Positions 10,740-56,056 of a DNA stretch of 64,000 bases are shown here, piece after piece. How positions within the stretch are numbered: the first letter of the stretch is position 1; each line of letters begins with the position of its first letter. The DNA is from a virus. The position numbers and the translations under genes are program-made. The notes beneath the pieces were generated by a model. That model saw only the letters and a list, made by a program, of their open reading frames with translations, did no database searches and had not been told where the DNA came from. The stretch lies in the UHGV virus genome UHGV-0171787. The stretch is one strand, 5' to 3'.

Positions 10740-13697
10740 ATGGCTCTCTACCCAATAAAATCTTTGGGTGCGGTTGGTGTTATTGCCGACCAATCTCCTA
10801 CAGATCTGGCTCCTAATGCATTCACTAATGCAATCAATGCTCGGTTTGTAGAACAGCGTGTGTTTAAGACGGGGGGCTCTGCCCCTCTTTCTTACGTTGA
10901 GAGTGATAAAGGAATAAAACCATTATCATTCACTTCAATGCCTTTTGACTACTTCAGTGCTAACAACAGTTTCTTGCTGGTAGGTACAGATAAGAGTATT
11001 TTTAGGCTAAATAATGAATCTATGATTGATGTTAGTCGAAGAGTGGCCACAGTCACCAAAAAGGCTGTGTCTTACATTAAGATAAACCCTGTGCTAACAG
11101 AGATTGTCCCCAAAGAAACATCTGTCATTATGAGTTTTAATGAAAGCAAAGTTCTCGAGGTATCTCTTCTTCCAGAGGGTGTTACTACTCCATCTCTTGT
11201 GTGGGAAGTTAGCAATCCTTCTTATGGTTCAATACTAGTTGACCCTGACGATAACAAGAAGGCTACATTGAGCGTCTTGTCTAATGAGGGAAGCTTCACT
11301 GTCACCATCTCTAATGAAGAGGAATCTGTTACTGCCAGTATTTCCGTAAAAGTTGTTGATTCGGATTCTGGTATATTTCTTAACCGAGACTCTGTCCAAC
11401 TCCGGAAAGGTGGGACAACTACCCTTACAGCAACAACAAGTAAGACCCCTCTAACATGGACTTCTTCTAACCCAGCCATTATCTCTGTAGCGCCTAATGG
11501 TGACACTACTACCGCAGTGTTAACCGCTCAAGGAGTAGGTAATGCACTGATAACTGTAAGCAACGGGTCTAAGACCTCAGAATGTTCTGTTAGCGTTATT
11601 AATCAGATTGACAGTATATCTTTGAGTCAAACAGACTTACAAATTAACCGTGGGACGTCTTATGTCTTATATGCTAGCTTGACCCCATCAAATGCTGCAA
11701 ATCAGAAAATAACTTGGACCTCCTCTAATCCAAATGTTGCCACTGTTTCAGGAACTAGCCTTCAAGGAACTATCTCTGGACTCACAGCTGGGTTTACAGT
11801 TATAACAGCAACTACGGAAGAAGGCGAGAGGACAGCCACCTGTAATGTCAGGGTTGAGTTATCAAGCAGGACTCTTTTTGCTGCTGCATCGGCTCCTCCT
11901 GAAGAGTCTAGTTCTACGGATTCAGATATTGACACCTCAGCTATGTCAGAGGGGAACTCTTTTTATGACTACTCTATGGTTGATGGCGTTGAAGCCTATT
12001 CAATAAATGAAGTCATGTCTAGATCAACTCAGCTTGAATCCTTAACTCTTGATATTGTGGATACTGAAATTGATGTTGGGGATGAGTTAGTAATAACTGC
12101 AACGGCAGCCCCTGAAGGGGAGTATCTTTATAGTTGGGTGGTAGACCAGCCGGGGTACATATCCTCTACTTCCACTACCGAGCCTTCCTTTACTTTAACT
12201 GCAATTAAGACTGGCAAAGTGAAGATAACCTGTACTGCTAGTCAAGTAGCTCGTAGAGATTATGAAGCGTTTGAAGAATACCCTTGGTATAATACCATCA
12301 TCTCTAACTGTGCAGTGTTCACTACTCACTATGAAACACCTCAAGTAAAAGAGTTTGCCTCTGAATACTTCACAGATCTTCCGGGGTGGGGAGAGCAGAC
12401 GATAGTTGATGCTAATGGGAACCCTTCTGTTGTAAAATATAACTGGAAGTGCGAAAGGATTCGTGCATTCAATAATCGCCTATTTGCTCTTAATATGCGA
12501 GAGTCTAATGCATCAGGGGTTACTACTCACTACCCTCTTCGACTTCGCTGGTCTAACTATGCTAATGAGAACAAGGCACCTACCTTGTGGGATGACTTTG
12601 CTTATGACAGATATGTGACTTCAGATTTAGCAGCAAATGTTGTAGGTCAAACTGAGGCTCTAGAAAATGGATATGCCGGATACATAGATTTAGCTGACTC
12701 AAACGGTAGCTTAGTTGAGATTCTTCCTCTTAAGGATTATCTATTTATCTATACGGAGTTTGAGACTTACATTGGATCCCCAACTAACAACACATATCAA
12801 CCTCTAATGTTCAAGAAGCTCTTCAATGATTCTGGAATCTTAGCACCTGAGTGTGTGGTTGAAGTTGAGAGTGGTCACTTTGTTGTTACTCAGAATGATG
12901 TTATTCTACACAATGGTGCAACTAAGAAGTCTATTGCATCCAACAGGGTCAAGAATATGCTTATCAACGAGGTGTGTTTAGTAAACCCTTTAGCCACTAA
13001 GGTTCACCTACATCAAGATAAGAAGGAAGTGTGGATTCTCTATGTTGGACCCGGAGAACCCGCTGGGAGTTTTGCTTGTACAAAAGCTGCCGTATGGAAC
13101 TACGAGTTTGATACATGGTCTTTCCGTACAATCCCATTCTCTCATTGCATTGGTTTGGTGGATCCTCCGACTTTAGAAAAAGGTCCTACTTGGGTTGATT
13201 TCCAAGAGTACACTTGGGATGATCCCTCAATCAATGAACTTGTGTGGAGAAAGGATTCTACTAACTTCCGTCAGAGAGTCACTGTAGTAGGTTCTTGGAT
13301 GAAAGGCTTTTACCAAGTAGATGTAGGTCCTTATGACTACTCATATGATAGGTTGAATGACGTTGTTGTCAAGAAGCCATTAGAGATGAGATTGGAGAGA
13401 ACTGGTATAGACTTTGACAATGTAACTAACGAGTGGAATCAGAAGCACATAAACAGGTTCCGCCCACAAGTAACAGGGTCAGGTACATACATATTCCAAG
13501 CGGGTGGTAGTCAGTATTCTGACCAAGAAGATAGACACATTCATAGTGAAAAGTCTTATACGATCGGTGTTGACAGACATATAGGTGTCCGACTGAACCA
13601 TCCGTATCTATTCTATAATGTTATAGATAATGATGTTAACAGTAATGCAGCTATCAATGGACTAACTATTGAGTTTGCTGTTGGCGGGCGAAGATAA
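10740..13697 (+). CDS. large virion protein with Ig-like (Big_2) domains
   Basis: 985 aa with several Big_2-like segments (for example VQLRKGGTTTLTATTSKTPLTWTSSNPAIISVAP...). Confidence 0.5.
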   Translation: MALYPIKSLGAVGVIADQSPTDLAPNAFTNAINARFVEQRVFKTGGSAPLSYVESDKGIKPLSFTSMPFDYFSANNSFLLVGTDKSIFRLNNESMIDVSRRVATVTKKAVSYIKINPVLTEIVPKETSVIMSFNESKVLEVSLLPEGVTTPSLVWEVSNPSYGSILVDPDDNKKATLSVLSNEGSFTVTISNEEESVTASISVKVVDSDSGIFLNRDSVQLRKGGTTTLTATTSKTPLTWTSSNPAIISVAPNGDTTTAVLTAQGVGNALITVSNGSKTSECSVSVINQIDSISLSQTDLQINRGTSYVLYASLTPSNAANQKITWTSSNPNVATVSGTSLQGTISGLTAGFTVITATTEEGERTATCNVRVELSSRTLFAAASAPPEESSSTDSDIDTSAMSEGNSFYDYSMVDGVEAYSINEVMSRSTQLESLTLDIVDTEIDVGDELVITATAAPEGEYLYSWVVDQPGYISSTSTTEPSFTLTAIKTGKVKITCTASQVARRDYEAFEEYPWYNTIISNCAVFTTHYETPQVKEFASEYFTDLPGWGEQTIVDANGNPSVVKYNWKCERIRAFNNRLFALNMRESNASGVTTHYPLRLRWSNYANENKAPTLWDDFAYDRYVTSDLAANVVGQTEALENGYAGYIDLADSNGSLVEILPLKDYLFIYTEFETYIGSPTNNTYQPLMFKKLFNDSGILAPECVVEVESGHFVVTQNDVILHNGATKKSIASNRVKNMLINEVCLVNPLATKVHLHQDKKEVWILYVGPGEPAGSFACTKAAVWNYEFDTWSFRTIPFSHCIGLVDPPTLEKGPTWVDFQEYTWDDPSINELVWRKDSTNFRQRVTVVGSWMKGFYQVDVGPYDYSYDRLNDVVVKKPLEMRLERTGIDFDNVTNEWNQKHINRFRPQVTGSGTYIFQAGGSQYSDQEDRHIHSEKSYTIGVDRHIGVRLNHPYLFYNVIDNDVNSNAAINGLTIEFAVGGRR

Positions 13698-38985: not shown

Positions 38986-39543
38986 TTACATTTTCCAATA
39001 TAATGAAGGTGGGTCGTAAGGGTCAAATCCTGTGAGTTCACACAAGTATTTATAAACCTTAACAGTTAAATTAACGTCCTGTTCACAATAAGTAAACATA
39101 TCCTCAGTGAAAGCATCCCATGCTTCCTCTTGCTCACCGTAATCACCTTTAAGTTCCCCTAAGAACTCACCCCATTGCTTCAAGCCATGACCTCTTGGGC
39201 CATGTCTAGGGTCGCCTTTCGGGTACTCAGGACTGTCACCAATACGGTCAGGTTTAAGATATCGACTAAGACATAAAGTGTCAAAGACGTTAAAACGATA
39301 GTTAATCAGATTGGGATACATCTTCTTCAGAGCACAAAGGTCGAAGTCAATAATATTGTGACCCACGAGCACATCTGCTTCTGTAAGTTTATGAATCCCA
39401 TCTTCAATTTGGTGAGGCCGATAGCCCCACCTTTCACCAGTTTCAACATCGAAAACATAAATACACCATACTTTGGTTATATCATCGTATAGTGCATTAC
39501 TCTCAATATCGAATGCAAACACTTTCTTCTTTTTCTTTACCAC
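38986..39543 (-). CDS. 3'-5' exonuclease (DnaQ/DEDD-like), encoded separately from the polymerase
   Basis: Exo I-like FAFDIES and a downstream Y..EQD motif; GTG start overlaps the helicase stop. Confidence 0.55.
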
Positions 39544-40079
39544 GGTGAAGCTCCATCTGCTTGGCTGACGAGAGAAGCTGCATCCTCTCCGTTAGTTAAA
39601 ACGAATGGATTATCTTCATCAACTTCAAAGTCTTCCCTTTCTACAAGTCTACCGGTTTCACTGATATACTTAGTATAACAGACACCTGTCTGACCGTAGT
39701 TACGTTCTTTCAGTAATCGAATGACTGAGAGGTTCTTAGCTAAGCCGTCAGCTTGCTTGTCACGCTCAAAGCCAATGATACACTGACACCAACGCATAAG
39801 AGAACGAGAGCCAGTGAACTGTACTTCACGTACCTGTCCACCTTCTTCATGAGGAGCACCACCTGCCGGAGCATTAAGGTGAGATAGCACGAAAGCGGTA
39901 AAGTCTAACTCTTTACACATACCAGCAAGCTCGGAAGCGATCTTACTGATTTCAGTGTTAATCTCTGAAGGTGTTAAATGAGATACCAGAGCGGTAATGT
40001 TATCAAGGATGATAAATTTACACTGGTTTTCAACTACCCAGAAACGAATACACTGTTTAATGTCTTCCCATTCGTTTTG
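39537..40079 (-). CDS. primase-helicase, exon 2 (helicase C-terminal part: Walker B and later motifs)
   Basis: [11 protein letters not shown] (Walker B / H2) and FVLSHLN; joins in frame to exon 1 after intron removal (...FLYDNFG|QNEWEDIK...). Confidence 0.7.
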
Positions 40080-40332
40080 CAATAATTCAATGAAGGACGC
40101 AACTCCTTCACCCGTAGCATTATATCTACTGCCCGTGGTTTCCCACGGGATTGGACTATATCATCACTCCTATTAAGGAGGCTAGGCGCTTCCACTAGCA
40201 TTAGCTTCTAGTGTACTCCTTTCGGATAGTCTCTGCACTTTCTAGGATGTATCCTAGCTTAGCTCAGGATTGGCATATCTTTCGACTTAGCTTTCCCTGA
40301 ATTCACCTAGTTTTACTTCGGCCATTGTGTTA
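40080..40332 (-). ncRNA. group I self-splicing intron (ORF-less, 253 nt) in the primase-helicase gene
   Basis: Intron RNA starts with UAA after an exon-terminal U and ends in G. P1: exon CUUCGGU pairs with intron GCCGAAG with U-G at the splice site. Conserved R element GUGCAGAGACUA (plus 40227-40238) and S element GAUAUAGUCC (plus 40153-40162). Confidence 0.75.
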
Positions 40333-54172: not shown

Positions 54173-54370
54173 TTAATACACTAAGCCGTGTAAAAGAAAC
54201 ACCCTCTTTGTAAGCTCTGCTTTAGCTCTGTAATAAGCCCTAGAACCTAACAGACGGCTCTTAACAAAGAACTTAATGTCATTGCTAACATCTTGTATTA
54301 AACGCTCCTGTACAGCTTCTGAGGAGCTATTAATCGAATCAATTAACACCTTTGTAGATGTGTAATTCAT
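54173..54370 (-). CDS. hypothetical small protein
   Basis: 65-aa ORF. Confidence 0.35.
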   Translation of the reverse strand: MNYTSTKVLIDSINSSSEAVQERLIQDVSNDIKFFVKSRLLGSRAYYRAKAELTKRVFLLHGLVY

Positions 54371-54469
54371 GTCACTACTCCCTACTAATTACAGCCTGTA
54401 AGGGCCACACAGACGATGAAGATACAGATTAAGGATATTACACCACCCCAACTCATAACACACCTCATT

Positions 54470-54985
54470 CTATTTAGTTAACCAAAAACCTTTCGGCTTT
54501 TTAACAACACCAAGAATCCTACATCTCTTATGGACAGCCGAATCACTAACACTCAGTAACCTCCCTACTACGTACACGGGGTAAATGTCTATTAAAGACT
54601 GAAGAGATTCTTTTGTTATTTCAAACCGTCTGCTATCTAATTTGGCACAAAGCTGTGAGCAAAACCTTTGGTTGCTATTCTCTGAAACAAGGTAAATCTC
54701 TCCACAAAAAGAACATAATCTTTCTTCCATAACAGCCCCATGATGATGCCTGCTATGCTCCTCATAAGTCATGATTTCTAAATTAGATGGTTCGTTGTTT
54801 AACTTATTCTCATCCTTGTGATGAACCACTAGGTCAGAGTTCAGTTCGACACCGTAGAAATTTTGAGCAACATACCTATGAACATACACCTTTCCAGCTT
54901 TATTGGCCATAGGGTGTGTTGGTTGGTACACATACAAATAACCAACACCTTTATCAACAACTGCTTTACTTAGATCTAGCTTCAT
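54470..54985 (-). CDS. HNH homing-endonuclease-like protein
   Basis: VVHHKDENKLNNEPSNLEIMTYEEH is HNH_3-like; a Cys-pair region follows. Confidence 0.65.
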   Translation of the reverse strand: MKLDLSKAVVDKGVGYLYVYQPTHPMANKAGKVYVHRYVAQNFYGVELNSDLVVHHKDENKLNNEPSNLEIMTYEEHSRHHHGAVMEERLCSFCGEIYLVSENSNQRFCSQLCAKLDSRRFEITKESLQSLIDIYPVYVVGRLLSVSDSAVHKRCRILGVVKKPKGFWLTK

Positions 54986-55005
54986 AATACCTCAAGAACT
55001 CTTAG

Positions 55006-55084
55006 CGAGGGTGACAGGACTCGAACCTGCATACTCCATTTACTTCTTTAACGACCACTTAGAAGGCGGGGAAGATACACCCTC
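55006..55084 (-). tRNA. tRNA-like element (non-canonical; could not be folded into a standard cloverleaf by hand)
   Basis: Minus strand has a 7-bp acceptor-like pairing GAGGGUG/CACCCUC and a T-arm GCAGG-UUCGAGU-CCUGU; 79 nt before the discriminator; a CUUCUAA loop would fit anticodon UCU but D-arm pairing is not evident. Confidence 0.3.
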
Positions 55085-55105
55085 ACTAAGAGCTCTCGTT
55101 AATCC

Positions 55106-55357
55106 TCAAGCACAAGCAGGGAGTGTGATGATCTTATACTTACCTTCAAACTCTCCAAACAAACCCAAGAATGTAGGACTGTAGGTTCCAGTACAAACAA
55201 ACTCATCAAACAATTCGTTATAGCTAGGCTTAATCTTCCAAGCCCATACATAACCCATCCTATCAATCGCAATGTAACGAGTGTTCAGAGGAACAGTCAT
55301 CATCACACCATCAACTTCAATCACTTTAGTTATTGGTGCAGCTTGAAAGTTTTTCAT
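55106..55357 (-). CDS. hypothetical small protein
   Basis: 83-aa ORF. Confidence 0.4.
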   Translation of the reverse strand: MKNFQAAPITKVIEVDGVMMTVPLNTRYIAIDRMGYVWAWKIKPSYNELFDEFVCTGTYSPTFLGLFGEFEGKYKIITLPACA

Positions 55358-55530
55358 ACTTTACCTTTGATAAAAATATCATTACCACAGACACAGCATG
55401 AACGAACAACAGTAGCGCCACGCTGAACGATACGAACCTCTTCCTTAACCAGATTAATACGAGCACCGCAGCAAGGAGAATTGACATAAGAGTAACCAGC
55501 TTGTGTATTCTTGATTGTTTGCTTAGACAT
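55354..55530 (-). CDS. small Cys-rich (zinc-ribbon-like) protein, 58 aa, not in the ORF track
   Basis: Hand translation MSKQTIKNTQAGYSYVNSPCCGARINLVKEEVRIVQRGATVVRSCCVCGNDIFIKGKV; RBS agaggaag; ATGA overlap with the next gene. Confidence 0.4.
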   Translation of the reverse strand: MSKQTIKNTQAGYSYVNSPCCGARINLVKEEVRIVQRGATVVRSCCVCGNDIFIKGKV

Positions 55531-55584
55531 TTTTAGCTTCCTCTTGTTAGTTTAAGTAAGAGTTGTCCCTTAATTAAAACAACA

Positions 55585-55612
55585 AAGGCCACCCGATTGG
55601 GCAGCCTTTTTA
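55585..55612 (-). terminator. rho-independent terminator
   Basis: Minus strand AAAGGCUGCCC-AAUC-GGGUGGCCUUU followed by a U-rich tract; related to the hairpin at 32905..32938. Confidence 0.5.
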
Positions 55613-56056
55613 TTTGTTAGCTGTTATAAGTCCAACCACCTTGCTTGTTACGAATGGCAGACATTGCATGAAGCCAGAAGTCTTCCAGTTTCAGAGCACC
55701 GTTAGCTACTGCATCCATACGTTCAGGGCGGTTCATACGTTTGGTTGATACTTTCATACCTATCTCTCTTTGTTAGTGGAGGCATTATTGCCAGTTGATA
55801 TAGCGGATAGCTCTCACTATAGAGCCAACTACTCTACAAACTGGTGAAGACTCCCTACCCCTAGGAAGTCTCCTGAATCCCAAACCAATACGTACCCCTA
55901 CATATCGGAAAGTCTTTCGAAAATTAACAGGTTTTAGTCTAGCACCGGATGTTCGAGCAAGCTCTCCCTAGCGGTGTGGCATATGCCTGAATTAATAAGT
56001 TAATGAGGAACACCCTCACATAGCCCTCTGATGAATACAAGGGCTATAAGTCGGTG

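Follow-up and report, generated by a model that had tools for sequence, protein, structure and literature searches.

A family of phage RNAs that appear to be arginine tRNAs with exchanged internal blocks

What kind of RNA is encoded where the two ends of a tRNA are present and a D arm is missing? The question is raised by positions 55006-55084 (minus strand, 79 nucleotides [nt]) of the virus genome UHGV-0171787, of which a 64,000-nt stretch, referred to here as the window, was analysed; RNA position i corresponds to window coordinate 55085-i. A first-pass annotation had described a T-arm motif and a perfect 7-base-pair (bp) acceptor-type pairing at this locus and had offered three options, namely a divergent tRNA, a tRNA remnant, or a tRNA-like structure. 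Both ends are present where it placed them, with the T-arm motif GGUUCGAGUCC at 55027-55017, and the first option is favoured here: the element is almost certainly a member of a conserved structured RNA family, and this family would, judged by its sequences, be a tRNA-Arg(UCU) in which canonical blocks 10-21 and 22-47 have been exchanged, that is, an internally permuted tRNA.

Two kinds of check suggested by that annotation, a tRNA finder and covariance models, were applied. ARAGORN calls no tRNA in the whole window, and the Rfam tRNA model (RF00005) falls just below its threshold (28.1 bits against a gathering score of 29, with local ends and only the acceptor and T arms aligned), whereas a covariance model of the family described below matches exactly one site in the window, a match that is not independent in that the window sequence is part of the model. 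No Rfam family other than tRNA matches within 54950-55150, even at E up to 10; Y RNA, tmRNA, and the other tRNA-like families of Rfam were rejected, as none gave a covariance-model match, and across the window the sole Rfam match to reach gathering level is a group I intron elsewhere. Chance would give 0.33 occurrences of the pattern GGTTCRANYCC in the window, and two are seen.

The element is flanked by the stop codon of the open reading frame (ORF) at 55106-55357 and the start of the ORF at 54470-54985, as had been reported, and a Pfam HNH_3 match supports the description of the latter as an HNH gene. Only 7 nt lie between the acceptor and anticodon stems and no D hairpin forms there; the earlier remark that a D arm cannot be folded is thus correct for the hairpin itself, but the nucleotides of the D stem and D loop are not lost. 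The partner strand of a short helix and a GG-containing loop sit 3' of the anticodon arm instead of between positions 9 and 26. The first-pass annotation also lacked the anticodon arm, the covarying 3-bp helix, the D-loop-like stretch, and a 14-bp leader:trailer duplex. The anticodon is UCU (55063-55061), which reads the Arg codons AGA and AGG, and the anticodon stem of the window copy contains one C.U and one G.U (all parts are placed in Table 1).

A single architecture is shared by 135 distinct sequences of 74-79 nt: acceptor, U8-A9-U10, a 3-bp helix, the anticodon arm, a bulge of 3-8 nt, the return strand of the helix, a connector, and the T arm. They were gathered from viral metagenomes and from phages infecting E. 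coli, Klebsiella, Proteus, Vibrio, and Streptomyces. BLAST matched 151 GenBank records at a coverage of at least 80%, and the carriers comprise a subset of kuraviruses, the phi92-like phages (146 kb, with a CCA-encoding copy of the element inside the tRNA cluster), Vequintavirinae, the jumbo Asteriusvirus group (PBECO4, 121Q), Klebsiella, Proteus, and Vibrio phages, and Streptomyces phages. Pattern scans of IMG/VR gave more than 130 distinct relatives; the family size drawn from that database is a lower bound, with at least 135 distinct sequences among the pattern-scan matches listed. Relatives in such numbers place the element well outside what chance would produce. One superfamily scan was anchored on G7-U8-A9-U10-C11, the anticodon loop, and the T loop, and a second on a connector variant, with the anticodon left free; parsing of the 135 members did not require the 3-bp helix to pair. 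These scans yielded shorter subtypes (74-77 nt) of the same architecture with the connectors UAAUGGAUCAAU and UAAUUGGACACAU. The bulge reads CRUUAAnn in subtype A and is 3-5 nt long (AGCA or UGAAA) in the other subtypes. None of 5,426 complete E. coli genomes matches the element, and among 185,579 species genomes it is found on four contigs of metagenome-assembled genomes (MAGs) only, of which ARAGORN shows three with several canonical tRNAs alongside and the fourth with one. An origin in the host or in a prophage was rejected on these grounds, the four MAG contigs all carrying phage-like tRNA clusters.

Structure within the family is supported by covariation. In an alignment of 38 distinct subtype-A sequences of 78-79 nt (A2), RNAalifold recovers the acceptor, anticodon, and T stems with compensatory changes at 15 of 17 pairs. 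The acceptor stem is 99.2% paired with double changes at all 7 pairs, and the T arm is 99.5% paired with compensatory changes and an invariant G53-C61. With the helix 11-14/39-42 added, the four helices are paired in 94.6% of alignment cells and show double changes at 18 of 21 pairs; none of 500 shuffles did as well, and slid controls were only 35-45% paired. Pairs 11:42, 12:41, and 13:40 form in all 38 sequences, the first as an invariant CG, the second as UA, GC, or AU, and the third as CG, UA, or GC, while 14:39 is an occasional pair that is present in the window. Pairing in the 3-bp helix reaches 99% across the 135 members, whereas shuffles give 63% (maximum 71.6%), with all four Watson-Crick types at pair 12 (GC 64, UA 49, AU 16, CG 6) and CG 63, GC 60, and UA 7 at pair 13. 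With the covariance model built on A2, family members reach 88-103 bits, whereas ordinary tRNAs do not exceed 31 bits.

Many of the unpaired nucleotides are conserved as well. The anticodon is UCU in 133 members and CCU in 2, both being Arg anticodons; the scans that left the anticodon free likewise gave UCU or CCU only, and no copy of the architecture with another anticodon was seen in them. The anticodon loop has the form Y32-U33-NNN-A37, with C35 and U36 invariant. As discriminator, 71 members have G, 55 have A, and 9 have U; 84 of 135 encode CCA. A connector motif, UAA-N0-2-GGA-N3-8-AU, is present in 132 of 135 members, and in 131 the GG is followed by A. At its third and last positions, the connector has A..U in 132 sequences and G..C in 2, never a mixture, so that A45:U54 in window numbering changes to G:C in the latter two. 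This reads as the pattern of the Levitt pair R15:Y48, and because of it the connector is proposed to hold the equivalents of A14, R15, G18, G19, A20, and A21 in that order, followed by Y48. U8-A9-U10 would correspond to canonical U8 and A9 plus one partner of a U.U that closes the D-like helix. The candidates for a tertiary core, U8, A44, A45, G48, G49, A53, and U54, are all conserved.

Three further pairings were considered and set aside. A fifth helix, 32-36/43-48, which would form a pseudoknotted 'variable arm', is 99.5% compatible within subtype A, but shows no covariation and is impossible with the bulges AGCA or UGAAA. Small hairpins in the 32-54 region of minimum free energy (MFE) folds differ between homologs and are not conserved. 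In subtype A, U8-A9-U10 could pair with G51-U52-A53, though only through invariant positions; positions 51-52 vary in the other subtypes, and this pairing was not adopted.

The model of exchanged blocks derives from comparison with the canonical tRNA-Arg(UCU) of phiEco32 (L001 2392-2468), in which the parts of the element have counterparts in another order. The two share the anticodon loop Y-U-UCU-A-A, a near-identical T arm, and the nucleotides that identify a tRNA to arginyl-tRNA synthetase (ArgRS). The phiEco32 D loop contains AAUUGGA, identical to the family motif that sits after the anticodon arm in the element, and the phiEco32 variable loop CGGUU resembles the CGUU.. that directly follows the anticodon stem here, with a stem strand on each side. 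Canonical tRNA order is 1-9, [10-21], [22-47], 48-76, and that of the family would be 1-9, [22-47]', [10-21]', 48-76. Block 10-21 holds the 5' strand of the D stem and the D loop, and block 22-47 the 3' strand of the D stem, the anticodon arm, and the variable loop. After the exchange, the D stem would close the anticodon arm in place of the D loop, and the D loop would become a single-stranded connector leading directly into the T stem. In contrast to a canonical tRNA-Arg, no D hairpin follows A9 and the internal blocks are reordered; the window copy, moreover, has no encoded CCA, possesses a leader:trailer duplex, and escapes the standard models. On the host side, the comparator is E. coli argU, a canonical tRNA-Arg(UCU).

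This model was examined in silico by moving the 3' stem strand and the connector (minus its last nucleotide) ahead of U10, the 5' strand, N14, the anticodon arm, and the bulge. Controls were cuts shifted by 2 or 4 nt, reversed or shuffled blocks, and genuine class-I tRNAs of the same loci (n=529). Native sequences were never called by ARAGORN (0/135 at every threshold). At default settings, 130/135 rearranged sequences were called (128 as Arg-tct, 2 as Arg-cct), compared with 508/529 genuine tRNAs and 13-133/135 in the controls. This threshold is permissive, accepting about half of most control sets and 133/135 with the cut moved by +2 nt, and discrimination is therefore visible at raised thresholds: at 110%, 117/135 rearranged sequences were called, along with 347/529 genuine tRNAs and 0-32/135 controls, and at 115%, 82/135, 218/529, and at most 2/135, respectively. 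Only at the default threshold is the rearranged window sequence called, as a tRNA-Arg(tct) cloverleaf whose D loop (AAAUGGAGUA) has 10 nt. Since rearranged sequences are called as tRNA-Arg, all canonical parts would be present with their order alone differing; this reordering would also explain why standard tRNA finders miss the family. Subtype lengths fit a pure exchange, giving variable loops of 4 + 1 = 5 nt and D loops of 9-11 nt.

Could such a molecule still adopt the tRNA shape? In the canonical tRNA, as in the structure of yeast tRNA-Phe, A21 and G22 adjoin the U8-A14 layer, residues 44 and 45 contact residue 26 and the 10-25 pair, and the 8-14-21 layer stacks on the 15-48 pair. The new junctions, 9-22, 47-10, and 21-48, thus join nucleotides that are neighbours in the canonical core, and by this analogy the L-shape is plausibly kept, including the elbow of G18G19 and the T loop, U8-A14, and R15:Y48. 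Stacking of the D-like helix on the anticodon stem would mirror that of the canonical D stem.

As to function, the element is probably a working, arginine-accepting tRNA-Arg(UCU) that decodes AGA and is charged by the host ArgRS, a view based on tRNA clusters poor in Arg(UCU), on syntenic replacement of a canonical tRNA, and on a complete set of ArgRS identity nucleotides; together with the Arg anticodon, these features favour the divergent-tRNA option. The window is that of a phiEco32-like coliphage (Kuravirus), with flanks 93-97% identical to phiEco32. In phiEco32, gp107 and the canonical tRNA-Arg(UCU) lie between the homolog of ORF 55106-55357 and a lipoprotein gene; in the window, their place is taken by a 641-bp segment (55098-54458) that contains the element and the HNH gene. 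Canonical phage tRNA-Arg(UCU) thus occupies the same genomic slot as the family, in kuraviruses and in tRNA clusters alike. Bas94 has the element at the same locus without the HNH gene, Bas93 and 1-6af have an unrelated HNH gene upstream of it, and ARAGORN finds no other tRNA in the window or in Bas94. Kuraviruses are reported to carry one tRNA, tRNA-Arg(TCT), in keeping with their frequent use of AGA (PMC9965538). In the window, 15% of Arg codons are AGA (7.9 per 1000), and use of AGA and AGG is about that of kuraviruses with the canonical tRNA. Elsewhere, 102 of 134 family loci are tRNA clusters, with 659 canonical tRNAs in all; their Arg anticodons are ACG 12, CCU 8, UCG 5, CCG 3, GCG 2, and UCU only 5, as compared with 30 for Lys(UUU), 30 for Thr(UGU), and 29 for Leu(UAA).

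Bacterial ArgRS recognises A20 as its main determinant, together with C35, U or G at 36, and A, G, or U at 73 (PMC9976931). The family has the complete set, with the A after GG, the invariant C35 and U36, and G, A, or U at 73. The host ArgRS would accordingly read A20 (A50 in the window copy), C35, U36, and G73, and the charged RNA would decode AGA and AGG codons. As regards the components other than ArgRS, the E. coli translation apparatus accepts a tRNA that has no D arm at all, without adaptation (PMC11551756). Expression, processing, charging, and decoding of the element are all inferred. On balance, phages of many bacterial phyla seem to encode and use an internally permuted, natural elongator tRNA-Arg(UCU), whose backbone would run through the L-shape in another order and which would be accepted by host RNase P, CCA-adding enzyme, ArgRS, EF-Tu, and ribosome.

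How would the RNA be released? A 14-bp duplex between 55098-55085 and 55006-54993 prolongs the acceptor stem to 21 bp, and the MFE fold of 54995-55100 reaches -42.3 kcal/mol (z = -5.5). Among 47 flanked subtype-A copies, 26 have an encoded CCA and no pairing of leader with trailer, 11 (the window copy among them) lack CCA and have a duplex of 13-15 bp that starts at -1:73, and 10 have neither. The duplex sequences differ between phages in a compensating manner (CUUAGU/GCUAAG, UAUUGC/GCAAUA, CUUUGU/ACAAAG, CAGAGC/GCUCUG). The duplex is probably a device that excises the RNA from a polycistronic mRNA by RNase III-type cleavage: the RNA would be co-transcribed with the flanking minus-strand genes, cut out via the duplex, and matured by RNase P and 3' trimming, after which the host CCA-adding enzyme would supply the CCA. 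The last pair of the duplex (55098) uses the first G of the HNH Shine-Dalgarno sequence GAGG (54993-54990; ATG at 54985), and the tRNA precursor stem might for this reason have to be processed or melted before the HNH gene can be translated.

The HNH neighbour, to which the first-pass annotation had drawn attention, is a real gene, but it is no part of the element: an HNH-like ORF lies within 250 nt in 11 of 135 members, and one is also found beside a canonical kuravirus tRNA-Arg, in YF01 (L440 1630-2079), where it overlaps the start of the tRNA gene. Full-length homologs of the window HNH protein (31-60% identity) occur directly beside permuted genes on four unrelated viral contigs (L379, L196, L339, L011), whereas the other neighbouring HNH genes are unrelated; those of Roth37 and Bas93 are only distantly related to that of the window. 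A single mobile cassette of RNA plus HNH gene was rejected in view of these distant HNH genes, the 11/135 association, and the YF01 case. Because unrelated HNH genes are involved and a canonical tRNA is affected also, the association would reflect homing sites and not a mechanism of the RNA; tRNA-Arg(UCU) loci look like recurrent, favoured homing sites. One possibility is that the rewiring was selected to hide the RNA or its gene from a recogniser of the canonical form, either a host tRNA-targeting nuclease or homing endonucleases that attack canonical tRNA-Arg genes, the latter of which would account for HNH genes recurring beside the family; a permuted gene acting as a cleavage-resistant allele is a speculative idea.

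Several points weigh against a working tRNA. Collection by patterns makes part of the observed 'invariance' a selection effect. The control set for the depletion of Arg(UCU) is tiny (2 of 24 tRNAs), and five family loci also hold a canonical tRNA-Arg(UCU), which makes the exclusion strong but not absolute. A20 is read by ArgRS within a closed D-loop geometry, whereas the A20 of the family lies in an open connector that may not present it correctly, and the argument for an L-shape draws by analogy on canonical tRNA structure and is not a model of this RNA. The window copy, lastly, has no CCA, and its nucleotide -1 pairs with 73 within the duplex, a poor setting for RNase P if no other nuclease has cut beforehand. 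The same five loci, and the roughly 38% of members that, like the window copy, encode no CCA, would suit a mimic of tRNA-Arg(UCU) outside translation—a decoy or sponge for an anticodon nuclease or a tRNA-targeting defence, or a binder or regulator of ArgRS or of a modification enzyme—that keeps the recognisable surfaces (anticodon loop, elbow, acceptor) in an inert or resistant RNA. Such a role appears unlikely. A decoy would be expected beside the canonical tRNA-Arg(UCU), yet the element replaces it at the kuravirus locus, and family loci contain hardly any canonical Arg(UCU) (5 of 659 tRNAs). Extreme conservation of the anticodon loop, the T loop, and the D-loop nucleotides despite an abnormal backbone topology is compatible with mimicry, but a pure anticodon-loop decoy would have no need of the acceptor stem, the discriminator, and the CCA (62%) that are also kept. 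A known link of phage tRNA genes to tRNA-cleaving defences, such as that of tRNA-Tyr to Septu (PMC13096335), speaks for mimicry; no defence nuclease specific for tRNA-Arg(UCU) was identified in the present analysis.

It is improbable that the 21-bp hairpin is itself the functional unit, whether as an RNase III processing or stability element, as a regulator of HNH translation, or as a DNA target or immunity site of the HNH enzyme. The duplex is present in only 11 of the 47 subtype-A members and persists in Bas94 without the HNH gene, and the part that is conserved and covaries is the 79-nt core, mostly with CCA and without duplex or HNH gene. The great stability of the fold, the shared Shine-Dalgarno G, and the recurrence of HNH genes, full-length homologs included, beside the family do speak for a functional hairpin; even so, an HNH gene also abuts the canonical tRNA-Arg of YF01, and a maturation device of one subclass is the better reading of the duplex. 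Least credible by far is a decaying pseudogene or functionless recombination remnant, the second option of the first-pass annotation. Failure of the standard tRNA finders and a truncated copy at L292 could be cited for it, but 135 distinct sequences in unrelated proteobacterial and actinobacterial phages, with every helix carrying compensatory changes, invariant loop nucleotides, lengths fixed at 74-79 nt, and covariance scores cleanly separated from those of ordinary tRNAs, refute it as far as sequence analysis reaches.

The internally permuted tRNA proposed here differs from the atypical tRNAs already on record. Mitochondrial tRNAs that lack the D arm include metazoan mt-tRNA-Ser(AGY) and nematode mt-tRNA-Ser(UCU) (PMC7609411, PMC4013460). 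Like the family, they have a three-way junction and no D hairpin, and as a curiosity both read AGN codons. They have, however, lost the elbow of D loop and T loop, possess degenerate T loops and a flexible Y or boomerang shape, and need co-evolved partners, whereas the family has retained a canonical T loop, GG, and nucleotides resembling A14, R15, and A21, shows Levitt-type covariation, is encoded by phages, carries an Arg in place of a Ser anticodon, and must use unmodified bacterial host factors. Circularly permuted tRNA genes were reportedly described by Soma and colleagues in 2007 in the red alga Cyanidioschyzon merolae; these too have tRNA modules in a non-canonical order, but there the 5' half comes after the 3' half, and the mature tRNA regains its canonical form by way of a circular intermediate. 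In the family, by contrast, the acceptor strands lie at both gene ends and pair directly, and only internal blocks are exchanged; no simple processing restores canonical order, and thus the mature RNA must itself be permuted. The engineered 'mini HisT', in which nucleotides 11-25 are deleted, is tolerated by E. coli aminoacyl-tRNA synthetase, EF-Tu, and ribosome, although it is artificial and limited by PNPase degradation (PMC11551756), and the family differs from it in keeping and relocating the D-domain nucleotides. tmRNA, the bacterial Y RNA YrlA, and the tRNA-like structures of plant viruses share mimicry of the acceptor and T arm with the family but are parts of larger RNAs and have no decoding anticodon arm.

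Non-cloverleaf tRNAs are regarded as a peculiarity of animal mitochondria. In the full-text literature other than subscription-only papers, no description of a D-arm-less or permuted tRNA was found for phages or bacteria; a 2020 review of non-canonical tRNAs does not mention phages, and according to a 2024 paper (PMC11551756) every bacterial tRNA known is a cloverleaf. The family is thus apparently a large, undescribed group of phage arginine tRNAs with a new internal topology. If used in translation, these would be the first non-cloverleaf tRNAs known outside mitochondria; cloverleaf connectivity would then not be required for an L-shaped, host-compatible tRNA, and the family would offer a natural system for testing which features ArgRS, RNase P, EF-Tu, and the ribosome actually read, and a ready-made scaffold for the design of orthogonal tRNAs. 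The genes are missed or mis-annotated in at least ~150 GenBank phage genomes, and as a result phage tRNA repertoires and codon-usage analyses would systematically lack an AGA decoder.

Beneath the matches, GenBank annotation is mostly absent and otherwise reads 'tRNA-OTHER', 'tRNA-Undet', 'tRNA-Leu', 'tRNA-Val', or 'hypothetical protein'. The permuted gene is labelled tRNA-Leu in 121Q (NC_025447) and tRNA-Val in Yaboi (NC_048730), and coding sequences for a 'hypothetical protein' overlap it in 1-6af, BIS47, and Mydo; all five are probably annotation errors. ARAGORN makes calls of 88-96 nt, 'tRNA-Arg(tct)', overlapping the element at L060 (10443-10536), L313, L346, and L347. At least some of these overlong calls appear to take flanking pairing as the acceptor stem, a route by which these genes may enter annotations with wrong ends. 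At L292 (6111-6183, minus strand), a truncated member is intact in its 5' part up to ...GCGUAAU (40.8 bits) and then continues into unrelated sequence, and could be a broken copy or carry an insertion inside the connector. A divergent 75-nt relative in the Streptomyces phage Mildred21 (L054 4001-4075, annotated tRNA-OTHER; 50.6 bits), with kin in LilMartin, Bmoc, and Persimmon, keeps the acceptor stem, UAU, the anticodon loop CUUCUAA, and the T arm, but its middle, AGGCGCAUAACGGAAAGAU, could not be folded convincingly into the family scheme. Copies of this type may be a further subtype or decaying, and were excluded from the family statistics; a gene annotated as a Ro-like RNA-binding protein lies ~4 kb upstream of the Mildred21 copy. 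A tRNA-like sequence at L027 (~10790-10870, minus strand) has the stretch UGGAGUAUGCAGGUUCGACUCCUGC in common with the family. Its acceptor stem is apparently 9-10 bp long, and it seems to have a D arm of the normal kind plus a long extra region; it may be a gene of the tRNA-Sec or allo-tRNA type. Three family-bearing clusters also contain, according to ARAGORN, tRNAs with a CUA anticodon (amber-suppressor type, labelled tRNA-Pyl), as at L044 2109-2182, and a tmRNA gene is called at L032 6424-6703.

Table 1. Parts of the element and adjoining features in window coordinates; the rows from the acceptor 5' strand to the discriminator give, read downwards, the complete RNA from 55084 to 55006.
Feature	RNA segment	Coordinates	Strand	Basis
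Leader strand, 5' half of the 14-bp leader:trailer duplex prolonging the acceptor stem	CGAGAGCUCUUAGU	55085..55098	-	Sequence, MFE fold
Acceptor stem 5' strand, RNA 1-7, perfect pairing with 55013-55007	GAGGGUG	55078..55084	-	38 homologs
U8-A9-U10 connector	UAU	55075..55077	-	UAU 130/135, UAC 5/135
D-stem-like helix 5' strand C11 U12 U13, plus C14 pairing with G39 in the window phage	CUUC	55071..55074	-	Covariation
Anticodon arm (stem, loop, stem)	CCCGC CUUCUAA GUGGU	55054..55070	-	5/5 stem pairs covary
8-nt bulge, proposed variable-loop counterpart (canonical 44-47)	CGUUAAAG	55046..55053	-	Resembles variable loop of phiEco32 tRNA-Arg
D-stem-like helix 3' strand A40 A41 G42	AAG	55043..55045	-	Covaries with 55074-55072
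D-loop-like connector, U43-AAAUGGAGUA-U54	UAAAUGGAGUAU	55031..55042	-	Motif, Levitt-type covariation
T arm (stem, loop, stem)	GCAGG UUCGAGU CCUGU	55014..55030	-	Aligned by Rfam tRNA model
Acceptor stem 3' strand	CACCCUC	55007..55013	-	Pairs with 55084-55078
Discriminator G73, followed by CUA, hence CCA not encoded	G	55006	-	Sequence
3' trailer strand of leader:trailer duplex		54993..55005	-	Sequence, fold
HNH endonuclease gene, 171 aa, neighbour outside the RNA		54470..54985	-	Pfam HNH_3 PF13392, 47.2 bits, E 1.6e-12

No promoter-like site adjoins the element. A hairpin resembling an intrinsic terminator, with 11 pairs and a T-rich tail, lies ~500 nt upstream on the same strand (55584-55609, minus strand) and is the sole such site within 54300-55800. 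Further away, the group I intron (RF00028, 86.3 bits, full-length model) occupies 40132-40342 on the minus strand, between ORF 40330-41580 (416 aa, no Pfam match) and ORF 39537-40082, which has a DnaB_C match below the Pfam cut-off; given this weak match and the position of the intron, it appears to split a gene for a replicative helicase or primase-helicase.

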